Below are positions 10,024 to 27,900 of a stretch of DNA of 64,000 bases, piece by piece. A program made the position numbers and the translations under genes. The stretch is taken from NCBI GenBank assembly GCA_019058315.1, contig JAHPZH010000001.1, positions 96,001 to 160,000 on the forward strand, read 5' to 3'. The first letter of the stretch is position 1. The number at the start of each line of letters is the position of its first letter. This DNA comes from Candidatus Helarchaeota archaeon. GTDB lineage: Archaea; Asgardarchaeota; Lokiarchaeia; Helarchaeales; RDOG01. The notes under the pieces are model-generated. The model ran no database searches. It saw nothing but the letters and a program-made list of their open reading frames with translations, and was not told the DNA's origin.

Positions 10024-11077
10024 TACGGGTGAAACAATATATATCGAGGATGAGGAGCTTCTTATCAGAGATATTGCCAATAAAATAATGAAAGAATACA
10101 ATCTAGAAAAACCACCAATCTTCTTCACCCTTATGAAAGAAGACCCAGTATCAGAAACTTATCTAGAAGAAGATGATAAATTAAAAACAATTAATGAAGA
10201 AAAATTGGATGTAAAGACACCAATATGGTGGCGATCGTCAGAAATTGATCTAGATTTAATTTATAAACTTCGAACAGAACGCTATGATAGATCGGGTTAT
10301 GAGCTAGAAAAAATCGGAAAAACCAAGGTATTAATTGCAGGTGTGGGATTATTAGGAGCGGATATTGCGTTTGATTGCGCAGTTTTAGGAATAAAGGACC
10401 TTACAATAATTGATTATGGGTCTGTAGATTGGTTTAATATCTATCGACAAAGTCTCTATTCCAAAAAAGATGTATTTAAATCGAAAGTTGAAGTGGCAAA
10501 AGAAAATCTCGAGGATATGGGGGGTGTAAATGTTAAATCATTAAAAATTGAGATTCCAAGTTTTATTTATCTGCCAGAAGATAAAAGTATAATACAAAAT
10601 TCCATTTTAAAAATTGAGCCTGAAGTTAAAAAATGTGATATAATAATTACTGCTCTTGATACATTCAGCGCTAGAATGATAATGCAAACTTTAGCTTTAG
10701 CAAATGATAAAATCCTTATTAATACGGCGGCTGGTCTAGTAGGTGGGGTAGTTCAATTAGTGAGAATTAAGCAAAATGATCCTTGCTTGGCATGTGGTAT
10801 TTATTTTGATAGAAATCAAGATGTGGGTGCGTGCACTTTGGCATCGTTTGGTACTCCTAAAATCATATCTGGAATTACAATGGAAATTTTGACAAATCTG
10901 ATTGAAGAAAGAGAAATCAAATATAACCATTTTAAATATATTCCCCAAACTTACCAAATAGAACAAAGTAATTTTATAAAAGGCAAAGAGTTCTGTGATT
11001 TTTGCGATAGGGAGAAAGGAATTATATTTAAATATAAAAATGGAGAAAAAAAAGCCCTAATTGATTGGTTATATTGA
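9998..11077 (+). CDS. E1-like (ThiF/MoeB) adenylating enzyme with N-terminal Ubl-like domain
   Basis: GVGLLG, DYGSVDWFNIYRQ, SKVEVAK, DTFSAR, two Zn CxxC motifs (PCLAC, FCDFC) and a candidate catalytic Cys (VGACTL). Overlaps the JAB gene. Confidence 0.88.
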   Translation: MKIMFQNPDTGETIYIEDEELLIRDIANKIMKEYNLEKPPIFFTLMKEDPVSETYLEEDDKLKTINEEKLDVKTPIWWRSSEIDLDLIYKLRTERYDRSGYELEKIGKTKVLIAGVGLLGADIAFDCAVLGIKDLTIIDYGSVDWFNIYRQSLYSKKDVFKSKVEVAKENLEDMGGVNVKSLKIEIPSFIYLPEDKSIIQNSILKIEPEVKKCDIIITALDTFSARMIMQTLALANDKILINTAAGLVGGVVQLVRIKQNDPCLACGIYFDRNQDVGACTLASFGTPKIISGITMEILTNLIEEREIKYNHFKYIPQTYQIEQSNFIKGKEFCDFCDREKGIIFKYKNGEKKALIDWLY

Positions 11078-11214
11078 TTTATATGAAAATTTATTTATTT
11101 AAAGATAAATAATAACATTTTTTAATATAATTTTTAATGTAAAAGCACGCATTAATTTATTATTGTCATACTAAATTAGTTTCAAGATTTCAAATAAATA
11201 GGAGAAAAATTAAG

Positions 11215-12060
11215 ATGGTTGAAATTACATTAACCCCTAAAAAAGATGCATTCTCTTCAAAAATTCCTCTTGAAGCAGAAATTATTACAACAGATAATCT
11301 CGCTGGAAAATCTATTGAGGAAATAAAAAAACTGCCAGTATGGAAAGGAAATCGTGAAAAAAATCTAGGAGAATTTTTCGATGTAAAAGGAGGAAAAGCA
11401 GATGCTCCAGCAGATATAAAAATAATCATCGATGGTGATATTCCGATGGTAAAAGGGATTGGAACAAAGATGACTGCTGGTGAAATAGTTGTCAAAGGTA
11501 AAGCAGGAATGCACACAGCAGATCTATTAAATGGTGGAAAAATCACAGTGGAAGGAGACGTAGATGACTTCTGCGGCTCTGAGATGAAAAAGGGAGAATT
11601 TATTGTGAATGGAAATGCAGGAAATTACTTTATCGCAGCAGCTAGGGGTAATTGGCAAGGTATGACTGGTGGAAAAGTTGTAGTTAATGGCAGTGTTGGT
11701 TCTGAAATGGCTGCTTGGGTTCGTGGTAAGACGACCCGGATAGAAATCAATGGAAATGTTAAAGGTTTTGCGGCTGTTCATATGCACGGAGGATTGCTTA
11801 TCATAAATGGAGATGTTTTAGATAGATTAGGAGCTGAAATGGCAAGGGGAATTATTATAGTTAATGGAAAATTGGAATCTATTCTACCATCATTTAAATA
11901 TTCAGGGGAAGTGCAAGAGATAGAAGTGAATGAAACTGAAAAAATTACTGGAAAGTATTTACAATTCAATGGTGATTACGCCCAATTAGGTGTAAAATCA
12001 AAATATTTTGGTAGAATTTTCCTCGCTGCGGATAAGAATAAACATTTAATTCCAAAATAA
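11215..12060 (+). CDS. fwdC: formylmethanofuran dehydrogenase subunit C
   Basis: PLEAEIIT...VWKGNR..LGEFFDV, GxGxxMxxG beta-helix repeats, ILPSF. Confidence 0.9.
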   Translation: MVEITLTPKKDAFSSKIPLEAEIITTDNLAGKSIEEIKKLPVWKGNREKNLGEFFDVKGGKADAPADIKIIIDGDIPMVKGIGTKMTAGEIVVKGKAGMHTADLLNGGKITVEGDVDDFCGSEMKKGEFIVNGNAGNYFIAAARGNWQGMTGGKVVVNGSVGSEMAAWVRGKTTRIEINGNVKGFAAVHMHGGLLIINGDVLDRLGAEMARGIIIVNGKLESILPSFKYSGEVQEIEVNETEKITGKYLQFNGDYAQLGVKSKYFGRIFLAADKNKHLIPK

Positions 12061-12145
12061 TTTGCTTTTTTTATAAAATATTATAAATAAAATTAACTTA
12101 ATTATAGTTTAAATATTCTAATTAATTAAAACGGTAGTTAATTTT

Positions 12146-13312
12146 ATGCCAAAACCTGAAAATTGGATACTTATAAAGGTCCACGCTAATACAAAATTAG
12201 ATATTCCAAAGACAAAAATTCCACATCATAAAACTTGCGGGTTTCTTTCAAGAAGATTAAAAAATTTGTTAATGGATTCATTTGCATATGCATTTATTTC
12301 AGCAATAAATGAACCATATTTTAAAGTAGCAATAGGAAAATCTGATGAAGCTTTTGAAAAAAGGTTTTTAAATGTAATCAAGCGAACCTTTTTGAAAGAG
12401 CTAGTATTAGAGGTCTTTAGAAAGGGTGGTTTGGGATATGGTAAAAAAGGATACTTAGAACCACTTCCTTATTCAAAGCCCTACTGGGAGTATGACTTCG
12501 TAAATGCTAAAAGATTCGATGTTGATGGTAATCTAAAGGGTTTTATTGATGTAAAAGTTATTTATATTAATTACTCTTCTGAAAAAAACGTTACAATTGA
12601 AGAATTAGACACCACAAAAATAAAAAGATCGAAAAAAGCTTCAAAAGATGCTCCAGATATATCGCATCCTTTAGGAATATTGCTTGAAGCACCATGGCGT
12701 CATTATTATAAACTAATTGAACAAACTAAAAGAAAGAATGGTGACAAATTAGAGGTTCCATTCGAAATTCTATTCGTTTTAGCACCTTGGTTTGATCAAA
12801 CAGTTGAAGGTGAAATTTTAGATTTATTAGAAGAATATGTGCACCTTGATCATTCTAAAAAATCATTACCTATTCCTTCACAAGTACCTAAATTAATCGA
12901 GAGATATTTCCCTCTTGTTGAAGAAAGACCAGCGAGTTCCGATTGGATTTTGGAAAACTGGAATAAAATTTATGATGTTATTGGTTATGAGGCCGAGAGA
13001 TCTATTAAAGATTTAGAAGGATTTTGGTTATGGGTTTTGGGTGTTGTCGACAAAGGAAAAGCAAAAAAATTCGTGAATGTATACTACGATGATCAAATAA
13101 TGATGAACATTGAAGGAAAAGATACTGCGATCTGGAGCTCTGTGGTTCCCCCACCATATCCGCGAATTTATTCTTCTTATCTTAAAAAGAAAGAAGCTGG
13201 AGAAGACGTATCTCCTCCTGATATCGATCCGGATCATCCAGATTATAATTTGAATAACCATGCAATCGATGTTTTTTCAGATGATGTAAAACCAATAACA
13301 GATTATATTTAG
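12146..13312 (+). CDS. hypothetical protein
   Basis: 388-aa ORF with normal composition; no family recognised. Confidence 0.6.
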   Translation: MPKPENWILIKVHANTKLDIPKTKIPHHKTCGFLSRRLKNLLMDSFAYAFISAINEPYFKVAIGKSDEAFEKRFLNVIKRTFLKELVLEVFRKGGLGYGKKGYLEPLPYSKPYWEYDFVNAKRFDVDGNLKGFIDVKVIYINYSSEKNVTIEELDTTKIKRSKKASKDAPDISHPLGILLEAPWRHYYKLIEQTKRKNGDKLEVPFEILFVLAPWFDQTVEGEILDLLEEYVHLDHSKKSLPIPSQVPKLIERYFPLVEERPASSDWILENWNKIYDVIGYEAERSIKDLEGFWLWVLGVVDKGKAKKFVNVYYDDQIMMNIEGKDTAIWSSVVPPPYPRIYSSYLKKKEAGEDVSPPDIDPDHPDYNLNNHAIDVFSDDVKPITDYI

Positions 13313-13344
13313 ATTTTACATTCTTTTTTATTTTTTTAATTGAT

Positions 13345-14346
13345 TTAACATAGCTTATATGCTGAAATTACAACTTCTAGAGCTTTTTTACCATCTATAG
13401 CATTTGCAACTGGTTCTTTATTTTCTAAAATACATTCAACAAAATGGTCTGTCATTTTTTTCTTAACATTTTCCATAAACATATCTGGTTTTAGTGACTG
13501 AACTAATTCATTTCTTTTTAATTTCTTTGGAAAAAATTCGATTTTGGGTTCAGATTTATAATTCAATGCTTGTAAACTTATTATACCATTGAATCCATGG
13601 ACCTCGATAATATTAGATGGAAGATCACACCAACTTGTTTCAAGCTCGCATATAATACCGCTCTTAAATTTAAAAACTACACTTGCGACATCTTCCCAAG
13701 TCATTTCTTTACAGAAAGTTCCCATAGAGGCTCCTGTCAGCTCTGAGATATCACCAAACAACCATATTAATGTATCAATATGATGAATTCCTAAATCCAA
13801 TAAGACTCCTCCCCCAGCTTTTACTTTATCAAAGAACCATCTATCTTTACTGCTTGCTCTCCAAGAAGTATAAGGTCCTTTATGAGAAAATCTTGCCCTT
13901 ACAAATGAAATTTCTCCCAGAACTTCTTTATCAATAATTTCTTTTAAAATTTGATATGCAGTCCAAAACCTCTGATGAGCTGCATACATAAATATTATTT
14001 TTGCCTTATTTACAGCAGCTATTATCTTATTTGCATCTTCAAGATTTGTGGTTAATGGCTTTTCACAAAAAACATGTTTCCTTGCTTCTGCTGCAGCTAT
14101 AGCCATTTCAGCATGTAAGTAATTTGGCGTACAAATAACAACAGCATCAATATCTTCCTTTTCAAACATTGTATTATAGTCTGTATAATATGATGTCATT
14201 TCAAACTTTTTAGCAAATTTTTCTGCATGTTCTTTAGTACGTGATGTCACACTAACTAGTTCAACATTTGGATTCTGATTAAAAAGTCCAGTATTTTCGT
14301 AAGCAACTGCACCGGCCCCTAAAATTCCAAAACGAATCTTTTTCAA
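13345..14346 (-). CDS. Gfo/Idh/MocA family oxidoreductase
   Basis: GILGAG, ICTPNYLH, HVFCEKP, GGGVLLDLGIHHID. The TTG start follows GGTGA. Confidence 0.92.
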   Translation of the reverse strand: MKKIRFGILGAGAVAYENTGLFNQNPNVELVSVTSRTKEHAEKFAKKFEMTSYYTDYNTMFEKEDIDAVVICTPNYLHAEMAIAAAEARKHVFCEKPLTTNLEDANKIIAAVNKAKIIFMYAAHQRFWTAYQILKEIIDKEVLGEISFVRARFSHKGPYTSWRASSKDRWFFDKVKAGGGVLLDLGIHHIDTLIWLFGDISELTGASMGTFCKEMTWEDVASVVFKFKSGIICELETSWCDLPSNIIEVHGFNGIISLQALNYKSEPKIEFFPKKLKRNELVQSLKPDMFMENVKKKMTDHFVECILENKEPVANAIDGKKALEVVISAYKLC

Positions 14347-14497
14347 AATAAATATCACCGATTATTAAATTAAATTAGATCATTTCAACAAATTCAGTAA
14401 AATTTTACATTAATTAATGTTAAATAAGACTAATCTATACTAATTTAATTCTAAGTATATTATAATTCCCAAATTATCAAAGTTTTAAGGCGTTAAT

Positions 14498-16000
14498 TTG
14501 AAAAGTTATGACGTAATTATCATTCATCCACCAAGAGTAATGGAACCAGATTATGGTAAGCACACAAAATTTGTTCGAAGTACATATATTTTTATTCCAA
14601 TGGGTGTTTTTGCAATTGCTGACTTTCTTGAGAGGGAAGGGTTTGGAGTTAAAATTATTAATTATCCTTTAGAGCAATATTTAAACCGGAAATGGTCTTT
14701 GGCTGAGTTTCTTAAAAAAATTAATTTTAAGGTATGTGGAATAGATTTACATTGGATCCACAACGCACATGGAGTCATTGAAACTGCAAAGATTGTGAAA
14801 GAGGTAAATCCTAATGCTAAAGTGGTTTTCGGAGGTTTTAGCGCTTCTTATTATCATGATCAATTATTGAAATACTATAAAAATATTGATGCAGTAATTA
14901 GAGGAGAAGGTGAAATTCCTCTTTTGAATTACGTTCGTAATACTAATAAAAATCATGATTTAGATTCTGTGGCTAATTTATCTTATCGAAATGCCTCTAA
15001 TCACATCAAAATTAATCCTATTTCTTATGTAGCAAAATCATTGAATGAATTCAATTTTACTAATGTAAATCTCTTAGAGAATGCAAAAAAATATTTCGAG
15101 TATAGTAGAAGAATTATGGGAATTTCTCTTAATCTACCCATAGCTAGAGGATGTCCCTTCAATTGTCCTTGTTGTGCAGGAGGGCAAAGGGCTCAACAAA
15201 AATTATCGGGACGGGATAAGGTAATTTTCAGAAACCCAGAAAAAGTAATAGAAGATATCCACAATATCTTGGATAAATATAACATCCCTAGCGTTTTTTT
15301 TGGACATGGTACCTATCCCACAAATTTGAAATATTGGAAAAATCTTTTTAAATTGATTCGTAAGGAAAAGTTCGATATTAGCGGTGATTTGGAAATATGG
15401 AGGCTGCCATATCCCAAAGATATGTGGGAATTGTTTTATAAGACCTTCACTCGTAGACATTCATCGATTAGTATTTCTCCTCGAACTATGTCTACAAATG
15501 TACATAATAAGGTTGCAAAAATCTGTGATCCTACTTTTCAATTTCCTAAAAATCAAATTCAAGATTTAATAAAAAATGCAAATTTATTCAGAATGACTCT
15601 AAGAATATGGTTAACAATAGGTTATCCATTTCAAACCCGTAGAGATGTTCTTAAAGATTATTTATTTACAATAAAATGTCTCATAAAATATGGAAGTTCC
15701 AATTTCAAACCAATTACTATTATGAGTGAACCATATTATATTTTTCCTGGTTCACCTGCTCATGAGGATCCCAAAAGTTTTGGAATCAAATTAGATTATA
15801 ATTCCTTTCCACAAATAGTTGATGCATTTAAAAGAATAAAAGTAACATATACAAATAGAGTTTTAAACTATGAAACTAAGTATTTTTCGAAAACCACAAA
15901 TCTTATAATAAATGATCTATTATTTTTAACTGCTGCACCCATGTTTTTAACGAGAGGTGCGAAATATCCCAAAGAAAAAGATGTAACTATTTTTAAGTAA
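14498..16000 (+). CDS. cobalamin-binding radical SAM protein (class B methyltransferase-like)
   Basis: N-terminal B12-binding domain (PMGV, GIDLHW, VVFGGFSAS, IRGEGE) and ARGCPFNCPCC. Confidence 0.85.
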   Translation: MKSYDVIIIHPPRVMEPDYGKHTKFVRSTYIFIPMGVFAIADFLEREGFGVKIINYPLEQYLNRKWSLAEFLKKINFKVCGIDLHWIHNAHGVIETAKIVKEVNPNAKVVFGGFSASYYHDQLLKYYKNIDAVIRGEGEIPLLNYVRNTNKNHDLDSVANLSYRNASNHIKINPISYVAKSLNEFNFTNVNLLENAKKYFEYSRRIMGISLNLPIARGCPFNCPCCAGGQRAQQKLSGRDKVIFRNPEKVIEDIHNILDKYNIPSVFFGHGTYPTNLKYWKNLFKLIRKEKFDISGDLEIWRLPYPKDMWELFYKTFTRRHSSISISPRTMSTNVHNKVAKICDPTFQFPKNQIQDLIKNANLFRMTLRIWLTIGYPFQTRRDVLKDYLFTIKCLIKYGSSNFKPITIMSEPYYIFPGSPAHEDPKSFGIKLDYNSFPQIVDAFKRIKVTYTNRVLNYETKYFSKTTNLIINDLLFLTAAPMFLTRGAKYPKEKDVTIFK

Positions 16001-16139
16001 AATTTTTTCGTCAATTTTAATCTTTTTTGAATGATTAACGATTTTATTGATAAGTTTTTTAATAATTTCAATTCATTTTAGAAATTTTTATATATTATTT
16101 GCTTGATTGTAATTAAAGTAAAAATTTTGGAGATAACTC

Positions 16140-16715
16140 TTGAAAGACAATAGCTTTTCTAAATTATTTGTATTAAGCTTCATAATATTTATTTTTAGTT
16201 CTTTAATGCTCCCAATTATCAAATATTTTATTGATATCATCGCTGAAATGTTATTTGTATTCCAATATAAATTCTTTTATCAATTTCATATCAACTTTAA
16301 TTTATTATTATTCGAAGAAATTCTTCCCTATTTGATTTTAGCTTGGTTAATTAGTGAAATGTTCATTTGTCCTTGTATAATTAAAGCAAGACTCTCCAAG
16401 AGATTCAAAAATTTTATTTTAAGTTATATAATGAAGAAAAAATTTGACCATTTCGAATTTAATTCAATAAAATATGAAAATAAAAGGAAGCAATCCAAAG
16501 AGAAGAAAACTAGTGATGAAATATATGTTCATTTTACTCCTAAATTAGGAAAAAATGAATCCCATTTTAATCAAGAGAGAATAAAATATAATAATAATCC
16601 TCCTGATTATAATATTTCAAATTTTTTAAGAAAATTTTCAAATATCTTTAATATTTTTTTATTATTTTTTTCAAATTTTTTTTCAAACCTATGTTCACTA
16701 TGGAGGGGGAAATAA
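16140..16715 (+). CDS. hypothetical membrane protein
   Basis: GGAG SD before TTG, two hydrophobic N-terminal segments, low complexity. Confidence 0.4.
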   Translation: MKDNSFSKLFVLSFIIFIFSSLMLPIIKYFIDIIAEMLFVFQYKFFYQFHINFNLLLFEEILPYLILAWLISEMFICPCIIKARLSKRFKNFILSYIMKKKFDHFEFNSIKYENKRKQSKEKKTSDEIYVHFTPKLGKNESHFNQERIKYNNNPPDYNISNFLRKFSNIFNIFLLFFSNFFSNLCSLWRGK

Positions 16716-16838
16716 TCGTTTGAACTCATTTTTTAACTATACTTTAAATGGAAATAATTTCTATTTTTTGGTTTCTTTACTATTAAACTTTCAAATATCT
16801 ATTTATTTTAAAAAATTAACAAAAGAAGGTGAGAAAAA

Positions 16839-18242
16839 TTGGATTGGAAACCCGAAATAAATGAATTATATGAAAAAGTAACAAGTCAAGTACCAGAAGC
16901 ATTTCGAGATGCTGTAAAACCAATGCTTAGGCAAGCTGCAGAGAAAGCTGCGATACTCCGTAATTCTGCCTATGTAAGCGAAGATGATTTACTGTCATCT
17001 CTATTTGATATTACACCAGAGGCATTTAAACCAACGGTTGTATCAGATTTGGAAAATTTAGGAATTGCTACAGGAAAATATATTGAACTATCAGAGATAA
17101 GAAAAGACTATTCACGCACTTGGGATGAGATTAGTGGAGCATTTCTACCAGGGGTGTATCATTTTACTATGTTTTTAACTGATAGATGTAATCAGAAATG
17201 TATGCATTGTGCTGCTGAAAATCCTATACATCGTCCCGAACTCTCAACTGAACAATGGATTCAAATTATAGAAAATGTTGAACAGACCCTTAGAAAACGT
17301 GGTAGAAGGGGTTGCTATATATGGTTTGGTGGTGATCCAACTTTACGTAAAGATTTGAAAGATCTTATAAAATACTGTGGGGAAAAAGGTTATTACCAAG
17401 CAGTTTCAACTAATGGAATGCTATTTACAGAAGAACTTGCAAAACTTTGTGCAGAAGTTAAAATGTCACATGTTTTTATTAGCTTTGATAGTGTTTATCC
17501 TGAAAGAGCTGCAAAGATAAGAGGAGTTCCAAAAGCTTACGAGGCAGCAGAAAAAGCTATTAAATTAGCACTGAAATATGGCCATTTTGTAATTTGTACA
17601 GCAACAGTACAAAAAACCAATTTTGACGAACTTGATGAAATAAAACAACTCATGGAGAGTTGGGGTGTAATCCCTTATTTCAGAGCCGTTATAAAACAGA
17701 GAAGTGCTGCAGTAAACTGGGATGAGATTGGACTAAGTCATGAGGAATATAAAAAGTTCTATGAATTTAAATATAAACATGTTGTTGAGGCTATTAGAAA
17801 AGGTGAGGGTTCATCTCTCAATAAATTCTATACTTATGATATGGTTCCTTTTATGGAATGTCCAATAAATATAAAAGAACTTACTGCACTTGAATGGGGA
17901 GTTGGTTGTCAAGCATGTCGGTCAGTTTCGGGTATAGATATAAATGGAGATTTTTTTCCATGTGATTATCCTTCAGAATTAACTCTTGGAAACGTATTAA
18001 AACAACCCTTCGATGAAATAATGGAATCTCAGCTTTTTAAGGATATAAGAGATAGAAAAAGAATCGGCAAATGCGCATCATGTCACCATCTCGAATTGTG
18101 TGGAGGAGGTTGTCGAGTACATGCAGAATGTGAGACTGGAGATTTTTTTGAATCATTTCCGTATTGTTGGCATGAAATGGATCATAAACATGAAGAAATT
18201 GCTGAAGTTCCTAAAGAAAAAGAGATACCCGCAAGTAAATAA
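16839..18242 (+). CDS. radical SAM/SPASM protein with N-terminal PCP_red/DUF2621-like helical domain
   Basis: CNQKCMHC, FGGDP, SPASM cysteines (CQAC...PC...KCASC....CGGGCR...YC). Confidence 0.9.
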   Translation: MDWKPEINELYEKVTSQVPEAFRDAVKPMLRQAAEKAAILRNSAYVSEDDLLSSLFDITPEAFKPTVVSDLENLGIATGKYIELSEIRKDYSRTWDEISGAFLPGVYHFTMFLTDRCNQKCMHCAAENPIHRPELSTEQWIQIIENVEQTLRKRGRRGCYIWFGGDPTLRKDLKDLIKYCGEKGYYQAVSTNGMLFTEELAKLCAEVKMSHVFISFDSVYPERAAKIRGVPKAYEAAEKAIKLALKYGHFVICTATVQKTNFDELDEIKQLMESWGVIPYFRAVIKQRSAAVNWDEIGLSHEEYKKFYEFKYKHVVEAIRKGEGSSLNKFYTYDMVPFMECPINIKELTALEWGVGCQACRSVSGIDINGDFFPCDYPSELTLGNVLKQPFDEIMESQLFKDIRDRKRIGKCASCHHLELCGGGCRVHAECETGDFFESFPYCWHEMDHKHEEIAEVPKEKEIPASK

Positions 18243-18266
18243 TTTAAATGAATATGGTGTAAATTC

Positions 18267-19679
18267 ATGGAATGGGAAGAAGAAACCAAAGATTTATACA
18301 AAAAAATAACTGAAAATATTCCTGAAGGCTTTCGGAACTCAGTAAAACCCTTAATTTACGAAGCAGCAGAGAAAAGATGCGTAGAACGTAATGGATCCTA
18401 TGTTAACGAAGCAGATTTAATAACTGCAATTTTTGATATAACTCCAGAAGCATTTAAAGCTATGATGACTGATGATCTAAAATCCTTGGGGATTAACGTT
18501 GAAAGATACATTGAACTTAAAGATATTAGAGATCGATATAGACTTTCATGGCAAAAGCTAGAAGATGCTTTTCATCCGGGAAATGTACACTTTGCAATGT
18601 ATATTACAGAAAAGTGTAATCAAAAATGTTTGCATTGTGCCGCAGATGAAAAAGTTGAACGCCCTGAGTTAACAACAGAACAATGGTGTGAAATAATAGA
18701 GAATATTGAGACAGGATTGAGAAAAAATGGTCGACGTGCTTGTTTTATATGGTTTGGAGGAGAGCCCACATTGCGGGAAGACATCCATGATATCATGAAG
18801 TTCTGTGGTGATAAAGGTTACTATCATGCAATAATAACCAATGGTGTGAGGTTTGCAGAAGAATTTGCTAAATCTTGCTCTGATAATGGAATGAGCCACG
18901 TTTTTGTGAGTTTCGACAGTGCAGATCCTATAAAAAACGATAAAATACGCGGAATGCCCGGTGGAAAAACCTTAGAATCGGCAAAGAAAGCAATCGATAA
19001 TTGCTTGAAGTATGGTTTATTCGTTTGCTCATCAATAACCGTAATGAAACATAATATTGATGAACTTGAAGATCTAAAAGCAATATCCGAGAGTTGGGGT
19101 TCACAACCATATTTTAGAGCAGTGGTTAAACAAAATAGAGCTGCTGATTATTGGGATGAAATTGGTTTAAGTCAAGAGGACTATAAAAAATTATATGAAT
19201 TTAAGTATAAACATGCCATAGAAGCTATAAGGGATGGAAAGGCAGGAACTCTACCAGCATACGAAATATATGAAATGACACCCTTTATGGAATGTCCTAA
19301 GGACGACAAGGAAATGACTGGAATTGAGTGGGGTGTTGGATGTCTCGCTTGCAGAACTATGATGGGCATTGGGGTTGATGGAACTATATATCCTTGTGGT
19401 TATCCTACTAAACTGACACTAGGTAATGCATTGAAAGATAAATTTGAAGATGTTCTTAATACACAAATTTATAAAGATATTCGAGATAGGAAGCGCACTG
19501 GTAAATGTGGAGAATGTCACCACCTTAAATATTGCGGTGGAGGATGTAGAGTGCATACAGAATGCGAAACTGGGGACTTCTTCGCTTCTTTCCCTTACTG
19601 CTGGCATGAAATGGATCATGAACATGAAAAACTAGAAGGTTTTGTTAAGGAAAAAGAATTAGAAATTATAAAGAAATAA
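18267..19679 (+). CDS. radical SAM/SPASM protein (paralogue of 16839) with the same N-terminal helical domain
   Basis: CNQKCLHC, FGGEP and SPASM cysteines; colinear with the upstream ORF over its full length. Confidence 0.9.
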   Translation: MEWEEETKDLYKKITENIPEGFRNSVKPLIYEAAEKRCVERNGSYVNEADLITAIFDITPEAFKAMMTDDLKSLGINVERYIELKDIRDRYRLSWQKLEDAFHPGNVHFAMYITEKCNQKCLHCAADEKVERPELTTEQWCEIIENIETGLRKNGRRACFIWFGGEPTLREDIHDIMKFCGDKGYYHAIITNGVRFAEEFAKSCSDNGMSHVFVSFDSADPIKNDKIRGMPGGKTLESAKKAIDNCLKYGLFVCSSITVMKHNIDELEDLKAISESWGSQPYFRAVVKQNRAADYWDEIGLSQEDYKKLYEFKYKHAIEAIRDGKAGTLPAYEIYEMTPFMECPKDDKEMTGIEWGVGCLACRTMMGIGVDGTIYPCGYPTKLTLGNALKDKFEDVLNTQIYKDIRDRKRTGKCGECHHLKYCGGGCRVHTECETGDFFASFPYCWHEMDHEHEKLEGFVKEKELEIIKK

Positions 19680-19689
19680 AAATCAAAAA

Positions 19690-20103
19690 ATGGAGTTGAT
19701 GAAAATTATAAACACGAAAGAAGAATGGGAATCTTATTTAGATAAATTCATAGAGGGTTATAATATTTTACCTGAGTTACCTGCAATAATTCAATCCATA
19801 GCCCCATTGGTTTTTAATTATGTAATAACTGATCGCCCAGAAATGAGCTATTGGTTTTTAATAGAAAAAGACAAAATAAGTTGGGGATTGGGGCAATATT
19901 CTGGAACTAATCATCCAACTATCATCCATAAGACTGATTTTGAGACCATGAAAAAGGTTAATTCAGGTGAGACTGATCCTATTCAAGCAACAATGTTGGG
20001 GACTTATAATGTCGATGGTGATGTTTCTAAACTCATGGCATGTGCATCCTTACTTCCGCTTGGAGTAAAAGCACATGCTTATGCTCTAGAAAAAATAAAA
20101 TAA
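19690..20103 (+). CDS. SCP2 sterol/lipid-binding domain protein
   Basis: 'TDFETMKKVNSGETDPIQATMLGTYNVDGD' fits the SCP2 pattern (G..DP..A...G...V.GD). Confidence 0.75.
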   Translation: MELMKIINTKEEWESYLDKFIEGYNILPELPAIIQSIAPLVFNYVITDRPEMSYWFLIEKDKISWGLGQYSGTNHPTIIHKTDFETMKKVNSGETDPIQATMLGTYNVDGDVSKLMACASLLPLGVKAHAYALEKIK

Positions 20104-20115
20104 TGGAGTAATAAA

Positions 20116-21324
20116 ATGAATTTTAAATATAATACAGATATAGAAAAGATGCATTATGATATTATAAAGGCTGCTAAACTCGCTGATGCTCCATACAATG
20201 AAGATATAATTCAAAGAATTCTTAAAGCTTATAAGGATTTTTTTAGAGGTTCGGTTGTTACCTTTGTAACTTCAACTAAGCCAAAGAACAAACGCACTCT
20301 GTCAATCCGTTATGTGGAAATAGATGTTAAACATGATCCTTATGAAATTGCGATATCTAATAATCTACTTAAACAAGAAAAACATTTAATCCACCATTTA
20401 TTAACCGAAATTAAAAGTAATTATCCCATTATGGGGTATGGAGTGGATGCTGACGTAAATTATGGTGTAACGAAAATTTGGAGTTTCTTTCAAATTCCAC
20501 AACCCTTAGAAAAAGCATTTAAAACACCTGCAGTTCCTGAAAGTATCCAGAAATTTACAGATTATTTTAAAAAATATGACCTTGATGTTTTTCATCTATT
20601 TGCTTTAGATTTCCGTAATAAAACTGCTAATGTATATTTTATGGTGAAGGATCCAAAAGCAAACCCAGCTGATAAGGTTGCGAACATGATTTCAGACTTA
20701 GGTTTAAAAGTTCCATCACAAGAGATACTTGAACATTGCTCCAAAGCATTAACAATTTATCTTACATTTGCGTGGGAATCCTCCATGGTTGATAGAATAT
20801 GTTTCGGAACTGCCGTTGATGATCCTAGCTTGATCCCAACACATTTAGACCCATTATTAAAAAAGTATTCACAAAATGCACCATTTCAATCAAAAAATCG
20901 CCTATTTATTTACAGTATAACACCATCACGTTCAGGTGACTATATCAAAATCGAAAATGATTATATGGGGGAGATGATTAATTTAATGAAATCTGGAATT
21001 CAAGCTGAAGTTTGGATGGATGACTTAAAAAAACAAAGAGAAAATGTTCAGCCAAAAACTGTTGAACTAAGTGGGGTTAAGTGGGTAGATGGAGTTTCAA
21101 TATTATTTGAAAAAATTACAGATGATATTCCCGAGACGTTCCGTTCATTTGTAAAACCTATGCTGCTTGAAACTGCCGAAAAAAAAAGTCAAATTAGAAA
21201 TGGAAATGGAATTACTGAATCGGATCTTATAACTGCACTATTAGAAATAACACCAGAACCATTCAAACCTGACGCAATTAATAATTTGAAAAAATTAGGA
21301 GTAGATATGCAAAAATATATTTAA
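20116..21324 (+). CDS. ABBA-type soluble aromatic prenyltransferase (NphB/CloQ family) with C-terminal helical tag domain
   Basis: YGVDADV..GVTKIWSFF, ALDF..KTANVYF, IYLTFAW....DRICF and YIKIENDY match PT-barrel strands of NphB/CloQ. Confidence 0.85.
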   Translation: MNFKYNTDIEKMHYDIIKAAKLADAPYNEDIIQRILKAYKDFFRGSVVTFVTSTKPKNKRTLSIRYVEIDVKHDPYEIAISNNLLKQEKHLIHHLLTEIKSNYPIMGYGVDADVNYGVTKIWSFFQIPQPLEKAFKTPAVPESIQKFTDYFKKYDLDVFHLFALDFRNKTANVYFMVKDPKANPADKVANMISDLGLKVPSQEILEHCSKALTIYLTFAWESSMVDRICFGTAVDDPSLIPTHLDPLLKKYSQNAPFQSKNRLFIYSITPSRSGDYIKIENDYMGEMINLMKSGIQAEVWMDDLKKQRENVQPKTVELSGVKWVDGVSILFEKITDDIPETFRSFVKPMLLETAEKKSQIRNGNGITESDLITALLEITPEPFKPDAINNLKKLGVDMQKYI

Positions 21325-21363
21325 TTCTTAATTTTTTGATCACAAAATAAAAATTAAAAGGAA

Positions 21364-22773
21364 GTGATTGCAATTCAATTTACTGTAGCAACAAATTGGG
21401 ATTTTAAACTAATAGATGAATTAGCTAAATACCCTGTGAAAGATATTTATGGAGTTGCAAAATTTTCGATAGTTGGTCATGGTAGACCCTCATTTTTATT
21501 AAATGAAGTTTCAGAAGAAGAAATTGCGGAGTATATTCGAAAAATTCATGAGAAAAAAATGAAATTTTCTTATTTATTAAATGCACCTTGTATGAATAAC
21601 ATGGAATATGATGCTGAATATCATAAAAAGCTGTTAAATTACATTCAATGGATTTGTGATATTGGATCAGATAATGTAATAGTTACAACACCTTTTTTAA
21701 TCAGTCTTATTAAAGAACAATTTCCAAAATTGAAAATTCGGGTTTCAACTATAGCCCACGTTAATAGTGTGAATCGAGCAAAATTCTATGAAGCATTGGG
21801 TGCAGAAGAAATCACTCCTGATGTAATGATTAATCGCGATTTTAAGACTTTGATAAAAATTAAAAAAGCAGTGAAATGTGACATTGTTCTGCTTTTAACT
21901 GATGGTTGTTTATATCAATGTCCCTTTAGATATTATCATTATAATATCCTTGGGCATTCTTCCCAATCTTCCCACATACTTGGAGGTAATTATGTAGATT
22001 TTTGCATATTAAATTGTAGTGCTATTAAATTCTCTAATCCTACCGAAGTAATTAAAGCAAGATGGGTTCGCCCTGAAGATTTATCCCATTATGAAGCTAT
22101 CGGGATTGATAAATTTAAAATTGCTGGACGCCGTATGCCTACTAAATGGATTCTTCGAGCAGTGAAAGCATTTTCTTCTCGAAAATATAATGGGAATCTT
22201 ATAGATATAATCCAAGGTTTTTCTATGTCCGTTGGGGTTGAGAAAGATCCAAATGCTAAATTTATCGACACGATTGATAAAGAGCCTAAAGCAAAACTTA
22301 TAATTGATAATACTAAATTGGATGGTTTTATTGATTTTTTTAAAAAACAAGATTGTATATCAATGTGTGATGACTGCAAATATTGTGAAAATTGGGCAAA
22401 AAAAGCTGTAATTCTTGATAAAGAGCAAGCTCCTAGGTATGTCGAATCATTAGAAGGTTATATTAAAGATATCACTACGAGCCGAGAATTTGGTATTGAA
22501 TCGGTTAAACCAGAAAAGAAGAAGAAAAAAGGCTTAGAATGGAATCCTGAAACTGAAAAAATTTTTGAGGATTTAATTCAACTATCTCCCCAACAATTCC
22601 AATCAATGGCAAAGATGGTTATTTCTTCAATGTCAGAAGAAAATGCAAAAAAAAGAGATTCTAAGGTAGTAGAAAACCAAGATATTGTAAAAGCATTTAT
22701 TGCTGGAACTCCTGAACCTTTTCAAGCAGATATGAGAGAAGGACTTAAAAAATATGGTCTATTAAACGAATGA
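21364..22773 (+). CDS. U32 family Fe-S protein (O2-independent hydroxylase type) with C-terminal helical tag domain
   Basis: GHGR, YLLNAPC, STIAHV, GCLYQCPFRYYH, DFC...C, WVRPEDL, FKIAGR, extra C..C..C..C cluster. Confidence 0.85.
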   Translation: MIAIQFTVATNWDFKLIDELAKYPVKDIYGVAKFSIVGHGRPSFLLNEVSEEEIAEYIRKIHEKKMKFSYLLNAPCMNNMEYDAEYHKKLLNYIQWICDIGSDNVIVTTPFLISLIKEQFPKLKIRVSTIAHVNSVNRAKFYEALGAEEITPDVMINRDFKTLIKIKKAVKCDIVLLLTDGCLYQCPFRYYHYNILGHSSQSSHILGGNYVDFCILNCSAIKFSNPTEVIKARWVRPEDLSHYEAIGIDKFKIAGRRMPTKWILRAVKAFSSRKYNGNLIDIIQGFSMSVGVEKDPNAKFIDTIDKEPKAKLIIDNTKLDGFIDFFKKQDCISMCDDCKYCENWAKKAVILDKEQAPRYVESLEGYIKDITTSREFGIESVKPEKKKKKGLEWNPETEKIFEDLIQLSPQQFQSMAKMVISSMSEENAKKRDSKVVENQDIVKAFIAGTPEPFQADMREGLKKYGLLNE

Positions 22774-22814
22774 TAGAAAGGTAATTTTTAATTTTTTTTT
22801 ATAGTGACGTATAA

Positions 22815-23438
22815 TTGAAAACTGTTATAATAACCTCACCACACCCCGATGATGCTGTATTAGGTTGTGGTGGAACAATCATCAAATCCATCCAAGAAAA
22901 TACACAAGTTTATGTCATTTATCTAACAGATGGAAGGGCTTGTTATACTTATCTTAAAATTAAATCCAATTTAACTCCATCAGATGTTGCAGCAGGAAGA
23001 AAGAAAGAAGCAATAGAAAGTTGTAGAATTTTAGGAGTTCCAGAATCAAATCTAAAATTTCTTGAAATTTGGGATAGAGAACTTGGGAAACCAAAAAATT
23101 TTAAAAAAGCACTAGCTGCTGTAAAAGAATTAGTGAGAAAAACTAATCCTTATAGAATCTTTGGTCCAGTTTTTAAAAATAGACATATTGATCATCAAGC
23201 AACCCATGATATTATATTAGAAGTTCTTAAAGATTGTCCTGATATTGAATTTTATATGTACGGTCTTCAGAAATCTATTGGAAAATCAGATTTAAAAATT
23301 GATATAACTAGTGTTAGAGAACAAAGAGCAAAAGCTATGTTTATTCACGAAATTGAGCTTGTTTATGAAAGAGATATTTATAAAATTTTAGCAAAACAAA
23401 CAAAGGAAAGATTTAGATTATATAGAAGAAGTAATTAA
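22815..23438 (+). CDS. PIG-L/LmbE family deacetylase
   Basis: SPHPDDAVLGCGG, LTDG, R..EA...LG, HIDH. Confidence 0.9.
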   Translation: MKTVIITSPHPDDAVLGCGGTIIKSIQENTQVYVIYLTDGRACYTYLKIKSNLTPSDVAAGRKKEAIESCRILGVPESNLKFLEIWDRELGKPKNFKKALAAVKELVRKTNPYRIFGPVFKNRHIDHQATHDIILEVLKDCPDIEFYMYGLQKSIGKSDLKIDITSVREQRAKAMFIHEIELVYERDIYKILAKQTKERFRLYRRSN

Positions 23439-23644: not shown

Positions 23645-24175
23645 TTGAAAAGGTCTTCTTGGCAAGGATTATTCATCTTATTTAACCTTTGTGGGATTAT
23701 TCTTGCAATTTCTGGTATATTACTTGCCACGCTTGCCTTAAATGATTTCATAATTTTGGCTAATAATAGCTATATTTTTAGATTTTTTTGGGGATTCATA
23801 GAAATTTGGCTTAATTTTCTATTTTTTATTACTAGTATTGTCCCCTTATCTCTGGATATAGTCGCGATAATTTTAAGTATTGAGGCAGCAATTTCCGTTA
23901 TCAGCCTAATTCTCTTACTTGATTTTTCTCAGGTTCAAGGGTGGCGATTTAGGTTCTTAATTTTTAGTGGTATTTTTAATGTAGTACTTATTTGTATTGG
24001 ATTAGGTCTATTTGATGCTACATTAATTAACGCAAAAGTGAATTGGCTACTAGGAACATTCTTCTTTACTCCTTTAACCTCCTTAGGCGGTTCAATCCCT
24101 ATTTTAATAGGAGTAGCACTTATGGGTGTCAATGTATATATATTTTTTAGTATGAGAAAAGACAAAAATTATTAA
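23645..24175 (+). CDS. hypothetical multi-pass membrane protein
   Basis: About four hydrophobic segments; GAGG upstream of TTG. Confidence 0.6.
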   Translation: MKRSSWQGLFILFNLCGIILAISGILLATLALNDFIILANNSYIFRFFWGFIEIWLNFLFFITSIVPLSLDIVAIILSIEAAISVISLILLLDFSQVQGWRFRFLIFSGIFNVVLICIGLGLFDATLINAKVNWLLGTFFFTPLTSLGGSIPILIGVALMGVNVYIFFSMRKDKNY

Positions 24176-24189
24176 AAATAAAGAGTTTT

Positions 24190-24939
24190 TTAAAGAACCG
24201 CGTTTCCAATTAAGTTTCCAATCTCAAAATTTTTCTGAATTTCATGTCCAATCTTTTTATACTTTTCTATTTTCGATTCTGGAACTTTTAAAATTCGTAA
24301 AAATGGCTCAATTTCATTTATTTTTGCGAAATATATTAAATCATTATTTTCTCTTACTTCCTTTATTAAATCTATTTCCTGTAGATTAAAAAGAAAATCT
24401 TGGACTATTTGAGATTTTAATTTAGACTTTTTTGCTAATATGTTCAAATTGATACCAGGCTCTAATAAAATATATTCCAAAATCCTAAAAATCTTGTCAT
24501 CTCTAAGTAAAAGAATATTATTATCTAATTCTGAATTTATTTTGAAATCAAAATAAGTTATTTTATTTTTAAATCTCCTACTTCTTATATATTCAAATTT
24601 CTCAAGCATCCTTAAGTGCCAAGCTGTCTGATGAGGCGATAACTCTAGATTTCTTTGAATATCTCTTAAATGAGCGCCTGGGCTGTTGAAAACGTATTCA
24701 TAAATTTTGTTCCTTGTATTGTTATTTAAGACGGAATCTTTTGTTATTTTAGAATCTTCAAATAAAACTTTTTTTGAAAATAATCCGTAAATCGCTTGAT
24801 TAATTTCAACATTCGAATATTTTAAGTTTAAAACGGAAATAGTGTATAATTTTTCAACATTTAAAGGACTTACTTTAACCATTTTTTTTGCTAATTCTAA
24901 TATTGACCTCTCAATGGGTAAGAGATTTAATGTTTTAAT
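24190..24939 (-). CDS. double winged-HTH transcriptional regulator (archaeal COG3398-like)
   Basis: R..IYEYV..SPG.H.R.IQR.L......WHL..LE and a second 'ILLEPGI' HTH. Homology to the paralogue extends upstream of ATG 24882 to ATT 24939. Confidence 0.8.
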   Translation of the reverse strand: MKTLNLLPIERSILELAKKMVKVSPLNVEKLYTISVLNLKYSNVEINQAIYGLFSKKVLFEDSKITKDSVLNNNTRNKIYEYVFNSPGAHLRDIQRNLELSPHQTAWHLRMLEKFEYIRSRRFKNKITYFDFKINSELDNNILLLRDDKIFRILEYILLEPGINLNILAKKSKLKSQIVQDFLFNLQEIDLIKEVRENNDLIYFAKINEIEPFLRILKVPESKIEKYKKIGHEIQKNFEIGNLIGNAVL

Positions 24940-24981: not shown

Positions 24982-27900
24982 TTATTTGATATTCTCAAGA
25001 TATCTTAGAAATTCCTCTCTTTCTTTTGGAGATAAACTAGCTAATTCCTTTAGAATTGTTGCTTTTTCAGCGTTATCCGGAATGTTTAATTTTAAAATTC
25101 TTATTACTTCATCTTCAGATAAGAAGGAAATGTCTCGCTTTAAATCAGTTAAATATTTTTCCTTTTTGAGTCTATTTAATAAGAATTCTAAATTAGCAGA
25201 GCTATCTTTTTTATGTTCCATTCGAGGAGCTAAAGAATCTATTTTTTTCTTCTTCTTTGCTAATTTCTGCTTCGATATTTTTTGCTGAGTTGAGGTTTGT
25301 CTTTTTCTTATTACAATAACACCCACAGTGCCAGCTGAGGCTCCTACTATTCCAATTATTATAATTATAATAGTTATTGTATTATTAGGTGGTGGTATCC
25401 AAGGAATCCTAAAAGGACCTTTTATTTTTATTTTTATAATTAATGATTCACCTGTATTATTTGCCTCATCAACTGGAATTATTTCGTACGTATATTTTTT
25501 CTTTGAAGCGTTGAGATCCATATAATACGTTAAAGATGTTATTCCCAAATATTCTCCGTCTCTTCGAATAATATAATTTACAGAATTATTATCTGCCGAT
25601 GGAAACCATGAAATTGTGATATTACCTGATTGGATTATAACGCTTTTATATGTTGGTTTTGTGGGAGGAGTATCATCGAATGTTAAAATTATTGTCGTTA
25701 TATTTTGATTCCCGAATGTATCATTAGCTCTTATCCAAAATTGAACTACTTGATCACTATTGAAACTTGATAAATCAATATCGAAAGAACCAACAAATGA
25801 ATTTGTCCAAGTTAACTGTGTAACATTTGCCCTCCATTCCACAGTTGAAATATCTAGATTATCATCAGTAATAGTCAGATATATAAAGGCTGGCTTATTT
25901 AAGACTGTTTCATTCTGAGGAGAATCTAAGACAATTGAAGGGTTAATACTATCTGTATCCCATGTTGCAATATCCAAAACCCTCGCCGATTCACCAGTTA
26001 TTGTATGTGTGTCATTATAGATAACCATAACAGTATCTCCAACTTGAACCAAGATTATATCTGAAGGATCGTTACTTGAACTCGTACTAAATGTGAAATT
26101 CCCTGTAAATATGCCAGTAGTTGGTCCAGTCTCACCTAACTGAACTATTATGCCAGAATTATCACTAGAACTATTTACATTGACATCAACATAATCATTT
26201 CCACCCGTTGTATCTAGATCTGAATCTATTACTGTTATCATAGCAACTGTTCCTGTTCCGTAATATGCAGTTGAATCCAAAGTTATGGATCCTGTTACTG
26301 TTTCGATCCAGGTTGCTGTATCTACCATTTGTGCTGAAGCACCAGTAACATCATATAAGTCATTATAAATCACCATAATTATGTCCCCATCTTGAGCACG
26401 AATAATATCCAAAAGATCACTACTAAAGTTACTGCTGAATGTGAAATTTCCCATAAATATACCTGTCGTTGAACCAATTTCAGTTAATTGAACATATATT
26501 CCACCCACGTCACTTGAACTATTAACAAGCACTGTTGCATTATCAGGCGAAGCCGATATGTCTAGATCTGAATCATTTAACATTATATTCGCAACAGCAT
26601 CTGTTCCATAGTAAGTTGCTGAATCTAAATTTACGATACCAGTAACTGTCTCAATCCAAATGGCTGTATCATTTAAGCTATCATGAATTACCATGATAGT
26701 ATCACCATCTTGAGCCCAAATAATATCTAAAGGATCGTTGCTTGAAGTAGTGCTAAATGTAAAAGTTCCGCTAAATATAGCTGAATTGACTGCTGTTTCA
26801 AATAATTGAACCATTATACCTGGATTATCACTTGTGCTATTTACAGTTACGTTTACATTTTCAATAATTGTAGAATTCAAATTATAACTACTATCAATAA
26901 CCGTTATAGTTGCTATTGCTGCTGTTCCATAGTAGTATGTTGAATCAAGATCTAAAGTTATAGTCACTGTATCTATCCAGATTGCAGTATCTTTTGGTTG
27001 TGCGAAAGCTCCAGTAATTGTATGTGAATCATTATACATTGACATAATAGTATCACCATCTTGAGCCCAGATTATATCTGCAGCATCATTACTTGAGGTA
27101 TTGTTGAATGTAAAACTTCCAATAAAAATGCCTGTAGTAGCTCCAGTTTCATCTAAACGAACAACAATTCCAGTAGGATCGGAGGTACTATTTACATTCA
27201 CATCTACATAATCCATTGCTCCCGTTACATCCAGATCTGAGTCGACAACTGTTATAGTAGCTATAGCCCCAGATCCAACATAAGTAGGAGAATCTAGATC
27301 TATGGTTCCTGTAACTGTTGCAATCCAAATTGCACTATCTAATGTTTGGGCTGGCATACCTGTTACAGTGTGAGAATCATTATACCTCGTAGTTATTATA
27401 TCACCATCTAGAGCTAAAATTATATCTAAAGGGTCATTACTTGCGGTAGTGCTAAATGTGAAAGTCCCCATAAATACTCCTGTTGTTGGACCTGTTTCAA
27501 TTAATTGGACATTTATACCAACAATATCGCTTGTACTGTAAACATCTACGCCTACGCTATCAGGCGCCCCCGTTATATCTAGATCCGAGTCGCTTACTGC
27601 AATAACAGCAATTGCTGCTGTTCCATAATATTGAACCTCATCTAAAATTATGGTTCCAGTCACCGTCTCAACCCAAGTCGCGGTATCTGTAACATTATCA
27701 TGAATAGCCATAATAGTGTCTCCGTCTTGAGCCCAGATTATATCCGCAGGATCGTTGCTTACTATAGTACTAAATGTAAAAAAGCCTGTAAAATAACTTG
27801 TATTAACTCCAGTTTCAGTTAATTGAACAGAAATACCCGTGATATCAGTTGAACTATTAACACTAACATTTACGATATCAAGAATTGTAGGATTTAAATT

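Follow-up and report, generated by a model that had tools for sequence, protein, structure and literature searches.

A tag-bearing cassette of prenyltransferase, radical SAM, SCP2 and U32 proteins in an Asgard archaeon and other anaerobes, and its possible role in making a prenylated small molecule without oxygen

Eight open reading frames (ORFs), all on the forward strand, occupy positions 14498-23438 of a 64,000-nt stretch of DNA from a Candidatus Helarchaeota archaeon (the window), and families were assigned to them by Pfam and NCBIfam profile scans with curated cut-offs. In order, they comprise a class B (B12-binding) radical S-adenosylmethionine (SAM) enzyme (B12-rSAM-A; 14498-16000, 500 aa), a small hydrophobic ORF that is the positional counterpart of a membrane ORF conserved in relatives (16140-16715, 191 aa), two radical SAM/SPASM enzymes that begin with a shared tag (rSAM1, 16839-18242, 467 aa; rSAM2, 18267-19679, 470 aa), an SCP2-type lipid-binding protein (19690-20103, 137 aa), an ABBA aromatic prenyltransferase (PTase; 20116-21324, 402 aa), a divergent U32-family Fe-S enzyme (21364-22773, 469 aa) and a PIG-L/LmbE-family de-N-acetylase (22815-23438, 207 aa). 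Intergenic spacing from 16839 onwards is 24, 10, 12, 39 and 41 nt, and the families, co-orientation and 10-41-nt gaps between 16839 and 23438 that an earlier note on this DNA had listed for the eight ORFs were all confirmed. The sequencing runs listed for this DNA are of sediment-metagenome DNA, one of them probably its source, with no RNA data among them. That note had also counted the PIG-L protein, which scores 92 bits to the PIG-L profile and 69 bits to BshB1 (cut-off 182), as a cluster member. As no homologue of it at E ≤1e-5 was found in the ~35 related loci examined, we instead regard it as an adjacent co-oriented local neighbour outside the cassette core.

Four of the remaining genes share a feature absent from the earlier note, a segment of ~80 aa that starts both SPASM enzymes (~84 aa at 16839-17090 in rSAM1; 18267-18518 in rSAM2) and ends the PTase (21076-21321) and the U32 enzyme (22531-22770), with 24-49% pairwise identity and 13 invariant positions. 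Four copies were counted in the 5.8-Mb genome, all inside the cassette. The tag scores 15.5-28.5 bits against DUF2621 (cut-off 27.7, exceeded by the U32 copy alone) and 15 bits against the PCP_red profile (cut-off 32.5). It is modelled as a four-helix bundle (predicted local distance difference test (pLDDT) score of 96), whose closest fold neighbours (BchI lid, Z 9.5; asr4154, Z 7.0; PCP_red 2kru, Z 5.8) lie in the range usual for helical bundles; the fold search returned only generic helical matches (histone folds, AAA+ lids, PCP_red) and was set aside as a guide to function. A profile search of 1.8 billion proteins (E ≤0.001) returned 238 representatives, with TPR false positives among them, including apparent tag arrays in 800-1600-aa multi-stretch proteins, which were rejected because Pfam identifies them as TPR_10/TPR_12. 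With TPR proteins removed, the Pfam-scanned matches lie on PTase_Orf2 (at either end), radical SAM/SPASM, U32, SCP2 or LuxC proteins, while many other matches are proteins of 80-100 aa. We infer that the tag is a common docking or recognition module of the cassette enzymes. In this it recalls the PqqD-like recognition elements (RREs) of ribosomally synthesised and post-translationally modified peptide (RiPP) pathways, small domains that are likewise fused to several unrelated enzymes and also stand alone, but the comparison is one of analogy only, as the folds differ (the tag resembling PCP_red and AAA+ lids) and no peptide substrate is evident.

Tagged relatives of the PTase were found in metagenomes and MAGs (metagenome-assembled genomes). 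Related loci were gathered by an alignment-based PTase scan, a single-PTase query having found none, and were read from gene calls with Pfam and from phmmer searches with the window proteins. The core, comprising two tagged radical SAM/SPASM genes, SCP2, ABBA PTase and U32, recurs in ~20 loci from Asgard archaea, Thermoplasmata and anaerobic bacteria. This recurrence, together with the restriction of the ~80-aa domain to the cluster in the 5.8-Mb genome, lifts the gene set above chance. The conservation check that the earlier note had called for thus gave a positive answer, with synteny across Asgard archaea, Thermoplasmata and several anaerobic bacterial phyla. The ~20 loci come from Promethearchaeota, Hermodarchaeota, Thermoplasmata, Clostridia (Pseudobacteroides), Aminicenantes, Thermoanaerobaculia and Deferrimicrobium; the named hosts also include Anaerolineae and Bacillota, and all are, by their record names, anaerobes. 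The usual order in class-level Asgard relatives is B12-rSAM-A, membrane ORF, rSAM1, rSAM2, a second B12-binding radical SAM gene (B12-rSAM-B), PTase, SCP2 and U32. Among 61 class-level relatives, 17 carry the PTase and 23 the tag; all 17 PTase carriers are tagged, and six relatives have tagged genes without a PTase. Wherever enough flanking sequence is available, the PTase adjoins tagged radical SAM/SPASM genes, with the exception of the minimal Bacillota/Anaerolineae loci (L053-L055). Arrangements vary with lineage: a Thermoplasmata chromosome carries a radical SAM gene, a PTase-tag gene, a radical SAM/SPASM-SCP2 fusion and a tag-radical SAM gene, a Pseudobacteroides MAG has three U32-tag genes, a B12-radical SAM gene, three tag-radical SAM genes and a PTase, and minimal Bacillota loci consist of tag, PTase and NUDIX protein only.

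Several further loci differ from this pattern in ways worth recording. Four loci of bacterial type (L006-L009) combine a tagged radical SAM/SPASM gene and an untagged 301-aa PTase with an energy-coupling factor (ECF) transporter (188-aa putative S component, double ATPase and CbiQ/EcfT), a 111-aa ORF, a trypsin-like protease and a 131-135-aa ORF, and this arrangement suggests an acceptor that is imported. On a MAG contig whose PTase is 81% identical to that of the window (L005:1-3230), rSAM2 is split into calls of 344 and 121 aa and the B12-radical SAM gene into calls of 274 and 192 aa, which may reflect frameshifts, decay or assembly errors. A relative with SCP2, U32 and B12-rSAM-B and without a PTase has a tag match containing one in-frame TGA (G031:C1:300264-300461). 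A bacterial metagenome contig (L068:7420-12850) carries LuxE, LuxC and a 949-aa LuxC-tag-radical SAM/SPASM fusion in series, a row that links the tag family to fatty-acyl reduction. Finally, two large clusters, L071 in the Aminicenantes assembly and L070 in an NCBI MAG assembly, each have four or five B12-radical SAM genes together with aldehyde:ferredoxin oxidoreductases (AFORs) and an alpha/beta hydrolase; L071 also carries a U32-tag-SCP2 gene and two U32 genes, and L070 a gene for a 1104-aa double tag-SCP2 protein and a stand-alone DUF2621 gene. These clusters appear to represent another, as yet undescribed kind of anaerobic lipid tailoring in which the same tag is employed.

The identity of the prenyltransferase, already proposed in the earlier note, is borne out by profile score, sequence similarity to solved structures and conserved residues. 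Residues 8-292 span positions 2-284 of the 287 in PTase_Orf2 (PF11468) with 215.1 bits (cut-off 22), and the protein matches AmbP3 (E 1e-49), AmbP1 (1e-40), 4ee6 (2e-39), NphB (9e-32) and CloQ (2e-18) in the PDB. A basic and tyrosine-containing set of residues (R60, R65, K120, N172, Y174, R227, Y276 and K278) is invariant in 23 relatives, and we take these residues to be collinear with K119, N173, R228 and K284 of NphB and with the Mg-replacing arginine of CloQ, a lead only. The window enzyme presumably transfers prenyl groups to an aromatic acceptor. ABBA enzymes are soluble and use C5-C15 donors. The ABBA enzymes of natural-product pathways (NphB, CloQ, EpzP/PpzP, AmbP1/AmbP3) share the fold family and the invariant basic and tyrosine residues, but the cassette PTase differs from them in its archaeal and strictly anaerobic hosts, in the ~80-aa tag borne at the N- or C-terminus according to lineage, and in its partners, which are radical SAM and U32 enzymes rather than oxygenases, polyketide synthases or phenazine genes. 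When cultured carriers of the anaerobe-type PTase were sought, only MAGs were found, the nearest cultured match being from Streptomyces (34% identity).

Both SPASM enzymes have Radical_SAM and SPASM domains with the CX3CX2C motif and auxiliary-cluster cysteines: rSAM1 scores 76 and 40 bits to the two profiles, is DUF2621-like over residues 3-83, and shows the motif CNQKCMHC and a complete SPASM cysteine set in its translation, while rSAM2 scores 81 and 39.5 bits. The orthologues of rSAM1 (775-872 bits in ~20 loci) and of rSAM2 (767-855 bits) fall into separate groups across all relatives, and by this measure the two are old paralogues. Among curated families, AhbC, AhbD and NirJ of alternative heme and heme d1 synthesis score best, at 124-135 bits for rSAM1 (cut-offs ≥500) and 145 bits to AhbD for rSAM2 (cut-off 500), so that with 124-145 bits against cut-offs of 500-650 neither enzyme belongs to these equivalogs. 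The nearest PDB matches are PqqE, the tetraether synthase GDGT-MAS and a decarboxylase (E 1e-8 to 1e-11 for rSAM2). The SPASM enzymes AhbC, AhbD and NirJ act on small molecules, trimming the carboxyalkyl side chains of aromatic rings; unlike them, the cassette enzymes have an N-terminal tag, form two conserved paralogous groups and have no tetrapyrrole genes nearby. Tetrapyrrole tailoring by AhbD/NirJ/BchE-like enzymes with a PCP_red-like tag was considered and dropped, as the cassette has no linked tetrapyrrole genes and both the PTase and the SCP2 fusions indicate a substrate of another kind.

The call of the small SCP2 protein is supported by Atlas features (0.94 to SCP2 clusters), by its alignment with the C-terminal SCP2 domain of ~680-aa U32 fusion proteins and by 58-72% identity to orthologues in related cassettes; the orthologous domains in fusion proteins P0133 and P0058 score 45-66 bits to SCP2. 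Such fusions are frequent among relatives. In 8 Asgard loci a U32-tag-SCP2 protein of ~680 aa adjoins a U32-like partner of 383 aa, and one of these loci (L034) has both this pair and the arrangement of single U32-tag gene and free SCP2 gene. Radical SAM/SPASM-SCP2 fusions occur in Thermoplasmata (L001) and Asgard archaea (L025), and an SCP2-tag protein (P0106) and a LuxC-tag-radical SAM/SPASM protein (P0080) were also found. Fusion of SCP2 to U32 or radical SAM/SPASM enzymes ties these enzymes to a hydrophobic substrate, as in the UbiT/UbiU/UbiV system, and the SCP2 protein of the window is presumed to be a substrate chaperone. A complex prediction for SCP2 and the tag scored 0.01, gives no verdict and speaks neither for nor against binding.

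The U32 enzyme is a divergent member of its family. Its match to Peptidase_U32 (PF01136; 48.5 bits, residues 88-150) covers 63 of the 233 profile positions (2-64), while the AlphaFold2 (AF2) model (pLDDT 81.5) is a TIM barrel whose top PDB match, the U32 protein Mk0906 (E 9.6e-11, TMt 0.71), surpasses the next, generic TIM-barrel matches by four orders of magnitude in E-value. The protein was aligned with its cassette relatives and with UbiU, UbiV, TrhP and RlhA of E. coli (NC_000913.3). C76, C172, C182, C186 and C218 are kept in all or nearly all of the 19 aligned relatives, and a further conserved CX3CX2CX2C lies at 331-341, a complement of cysteines that would allow one or two Fe-S clusters. 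In a maximum-likelihood tree the single, long and short forms of the cassette U32s form one clade, with the four E. coli proteins and a canonical archaeal U32 on the other side of a split of 100/99 support, a topology that includes few references. By this tree the cassette U32 is a third, deep clade, neither UbiU/UbiV nor RlhA/TrhP, and the grouping with the RNA hydroxylases RlhA and TrhP that would have spoken against the earlier note is not seen. The U32 enzymes characterised so far hydroxylate without O2 and contain 4Fe-4S clusters (PMC6747719), and by analogy with all of them the window U32 is presumed to be an O2-independent hydroxylase too. The same genome encodes a second, canonical U32 at G000:C5:201280-201960 (444-aa frame; 274 bits to PF01136), which scores 124-164 bits to RlhA, TrhP and UbiU and 34 bits to UbiV and probably represents the archaeon's U32 of RNA-hydroxylase type.

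The likeness to anaerobic ubiquinone synthesis that the earlier note had drawn stands in part. In E. coli an SCP2 protein (UbiT) is genetically coupled to U32 Fe-S proteins (UbiU and UbiV), the cassette hosts are anaerobes, the SCP2 gene of the window lies one gene, the PTase, upstream of U32 with 12-39-nt gaps, and relatives have an adjacent pair of U32 paralogues with SCP2 fused to one of them; the U32-tag-SCP2 and radical SAM/SPASM-SCP2 fusions reinforce the parallel. A UbiT-UbiU fusion in Zymomonas is a precedent for joining SCP2 to U32 (PMC6747719). Assignment of the window enzyme to the UbiU/UbiV type, however, is contradicted by its clade and its missing canonical cysteines, and only one U32 is encoded in the window. 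The pathways also differ in that the ubiquinone route uses UbiA, whereas the cassette has a soluble ABBA PTase, lacks UbiD, UbiX, UbiE and UbiG, and adds SPASM and B12-radical SAM enzymes and the tag.

At the upstream end, B12-rSAM-A combines the N-terminal B12-binding domain (61.5 bits) and radical SAM core that define class B; the Radical_SAM score is slightly below the cut-off (28.8 vs 29.5 bits), the CX3CX2C motif is visible in GCPFNCPCC, and the match to TIGR04190 (249 bits, cut-off 500) falls short of equivalog status. Its orthologues (714-811 bits) lie ~0.9 kb upstream of rSAM1 in eight related loci (L028, L029, L031, L033, L034, L051, L062 and L067), so that the proposed link to the cluster is upheld by a syntenic neighbour in relatives, and the enzyme is presumed to be a methylase or another radical tailoring enzyme. 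B12-rSAM-B, usual in Asgard cassettes, is absent from the window, and no orthologue was found in the same genome, where the best match is 33% identical, which makes the window cassette a variant that is short of one tailoring enzyme. The genome also encodes at least 17 paralogous B12-binding radical SAM proteins, four of them clustered at C5:606970-616132. The small ORF at 16140-16715 has no Pfam or NCBIfam match and lies in DNA of 20% GC. In 14 of 19 Asgard loci the position directly upstream of rSAM1 is taken by mutually similar ORFs of 226-263 aa with two hydrophobic segments. The window ORF fits this membrane protein in position and in its paired hydrophobic segments (residues 4-35 and 53-71), but its score against the profile of the conserved family (-8.8) is not significant; it may be a diverged or decayed copy, and its status as a real gene is uncertain.

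We consider it somewhat more probable than not that positions 14498-22773, one copy of a conserved modular cassette of anaerobes, serve to make a prenylated, hydroxylated hydrophobic small molecule without O2; the cassette enzymes are of oxygen-independent or oxygen-sensitive types only. The chemical steps that we infer, their order, the acceptor and donor and the role of the tag would be as follows. The soluble ABBA PTase would add a short prenyl group (C5-C15 typical) to an aromatic acceptor from primary metabolism, and the SCP2 protein would hold the prenylated, now hydrophobic intermediate. The two SPASM paralogues would carry out radical tailoring, which, judged from their nearest relatives, could be side-chain trimming or oxidative decarboxylation, or C-C bond formation. 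The divergent U32 Fe-S enzyme would hydroxylate the intermediate in the manner of UbiU/UbiV, the B12-radical SAM enzyme would probably methylate it, and the ~80-aa helical tag would bring the four enzymes that bear it to the same carrier, partner or assembly. A speculative version of this scheme would start from an acid derived from an aromatic amino acid, for example 4-hydroxyphenylpyruvate, the substrate of CloQ, whose side chain would be removed by AhbC/NirJ-like chemistry and whose ring would be hydroxylated to a quinol.

Several observations weigh against this interpretation. The cassette contains no precursor-supply gene and no gene that indicates an aromatic acceptor, and the SCP2 protein exceeds its profile cut-off only marginally (22.3 vs 21.3 bits, PF02036). 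The 4Fe-4S ligand motif of UbiU is CX6CX16CX38C and that of UbiV CXnCX12CX3C (PMC6747719), and neither four-cysteine set is complete in the window U32: the segment bearing C169 and C176 of UbiU is deleted in the cassette proteins, which removes the first two canonical Fe-S cysteines, and the sole match among the canonical cysteines is that of C182/C186 with C193/C197 of UbiV. In BLAST its scores to the characterised enzymes span 0-46 bits, with 25 bits to UbiU, 46 bits to TrhP and no hit to UbiV. Given the missing cysteines and these low scores, hydroxylase activity is an extrapolation across a deep split. Furthermore, sets of radical SAM, SCP2 and U32 genes occur without a PTase (L062, with B12-rSAM-A, membrane ORF, rSAM1, SCP2 and U32, and L063), and bacterial tag clusters contain LuxC/LuxE, AFORs and many B12-radical SAM genes, so that the tag system may act on non-aromatic lipids.

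These last loci also favour the tailoring of membrane or storage lipids by hydroxylation, methylation or cross-linking of isoprenoid or alkyl chains, in which the ABBA enzyme would be optional and have an unusual acceptor. This explanation, which we think improbable, would further suit the weak likeness of rSAM2 to GDGT-MAS/Tes (PDB 7tol, E 1e-10; NF045702, 62 bits), the general lipid binding of SCP2 and the alpha/beta hydrolases of the bacterial tag clusters with LuxC/LuxE fatty-acyl reductase genes. To our knowledge, however, every PF11468 enzyme characterised so far transfers its prenyl group to an aromatic C, O or N atom, and the characterised U32 hydroxylases known to us act on aromatic or pyrimidine sp2 carbons; moreover, most Asgard copies include the PTase, which bears the tag as well. 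We likewise judge it unlikely that the product is a membrane electron carrier, that is, an anaerobic quinone- or methanophenazine-like cofactor for energy conservation; the earlier note had suggested a lipid-soluble electron carrier or natural product. The parallel of SCP2 and U32 to UbiT/UbiU/UbiV, including the U32 pairs with fused SCP2 in relatives, the 63-85% identity of the U32-tag protein across many Asgard lineages, and the failure to find the futalosine enzymes MqnA/D in the genome, which leaves the known menaquinone route not evident, are consistent with such a role. Yet quinone- or phenazine-interacting subunits of the NuoH/FpoH, NrfD/PsrC and NarI/HdrE types were not found in the 94%-complete genome, the cassette is patchy (17/61 class-level relatives have the PTase, and many relatives of 98-100% completeness lack it), the U32 falls outside the UbiU/UbiV clade, and the soluble, short-donor ABBA enzymes contrast with the membrane enzymes of UbiA type that make respiratory quinones with long chains. 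The missing NuoH, NrfD and NarI/HdrE, the patchy occurrence and the short donors make a respiratory quinone less likely than a specialised prenylated aromatic lipid, nothing points specifically to either a phenazine or a quinone, and an accessory or specialised role (signal, antioxidant, membrane additive or antibiotic) is more likely than that of a core respiratory quinone. The paper describing Promethearchaeum contains no statement on quinones.

Two explanations that place the enzymes on macromolecules fare worse. SPASM radical SAM enzymes are typical RiPP maturases, and a cluster in which they and the PTase modify a precursor peptide, with the tag as an element akin to leader recognition, would accord with the weak NCBIfam matches to PqqE, MftC and sactipeptide/ranthipeptide maturases, with the sharing of one small recognition domain by several enzymes, as for RREs, and with the trypsin-like protease and ABC/ECF components of some bacterial loci. 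We regard it as very unlikely, since no conserved small ORF lies upstream of rSAM1 (six loci, scanned to 25 aa), the only extra conserved ORF in Asgard cassettes is the 226-263-aa membrane protein (by cross-locus clustering with a minimum of 90 aa, so that short peptide ORFs elsewhere in the cassettes could be missed), fusions join SCP2 to U32 and to radical SAM enzymes, the tag fold is a bundle made of helices alone rather than a winged helix like that of PqqD, and the PTase is of the NphB/CloQ family. An RNA-modification operon, in which the U32 and radical SAM enzymes would act on RNA like RlhA and TrhP, could be read from the sole NCBIfam match of the U32 enzyme, TrhP, and from its higher BLAST score to TrhP than to UbiU. 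That profile match, at 32.8 bits, is far under the cut-off of 534, the enzyme is in a clade separate from TrhP and RlhA, the separate canonical U32 of the genome could perform RNA hydroxylation, and an RNA substrate would be at odds with the SCP2 fusions and with an aromatic PTase, leaving this explanation with hardly any credibility.

Returning to a prenylated, hydroxylated small molecule made without O2, the enzyme kinds involved are known, and the novelty lies in the architecture, the U32 clade and the tag; a literature search found no paper on the combination of PTase, radical SAM, U32 and SCP2. A more ambitious form of the proposal, to which we attach only tentative belief and which we think doubtful as a whole, holds that Asgard archaea and scattered anaerobic bacteria make a new class of prenylated, anaerobically hydroxylated and methylated aromatic lipid in a metabolon organised by the docking tag around SCP2, with a new U32 clade and new small-molecule SPASM chemistry. 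Should the product be of the kind that the cassette genes imply, this would be a second way, assembled independently, of making prenylated, hydroxylated aromatic lipids without oxygen, found among many anaerobes of sediments and in the archaea most closely related to eukaryotes. The U32 family would gain a new class of substrates, SPASM radical SAM enzymes would be shown to act on small molecules bound to SCP2, and the tag would be defined as a portable docking element by which the members of a single pathway are marked. The product could also serve as a new sediment biomarker.

Upstream of the cassette, the + strand encodes one protein that is ThiF/E1-like (9986-11077), one with a GXGXG motif (11215-12060) and a 388-aa ORF without family (12146-13312), followed by a GFO/IDH/MocA oxidoreductase on the - strand (13345-14358); none of these upstream genes (9986-14358) recurs beside related cassettes. 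Downstream, a family-less 176-aa multi-span membrane ORF on the + strand (23645-24175) is followed by two - strand ORFs unrelated to the cassette, of 230 aa (24190-24882) and 1160 aa (24982-28464).

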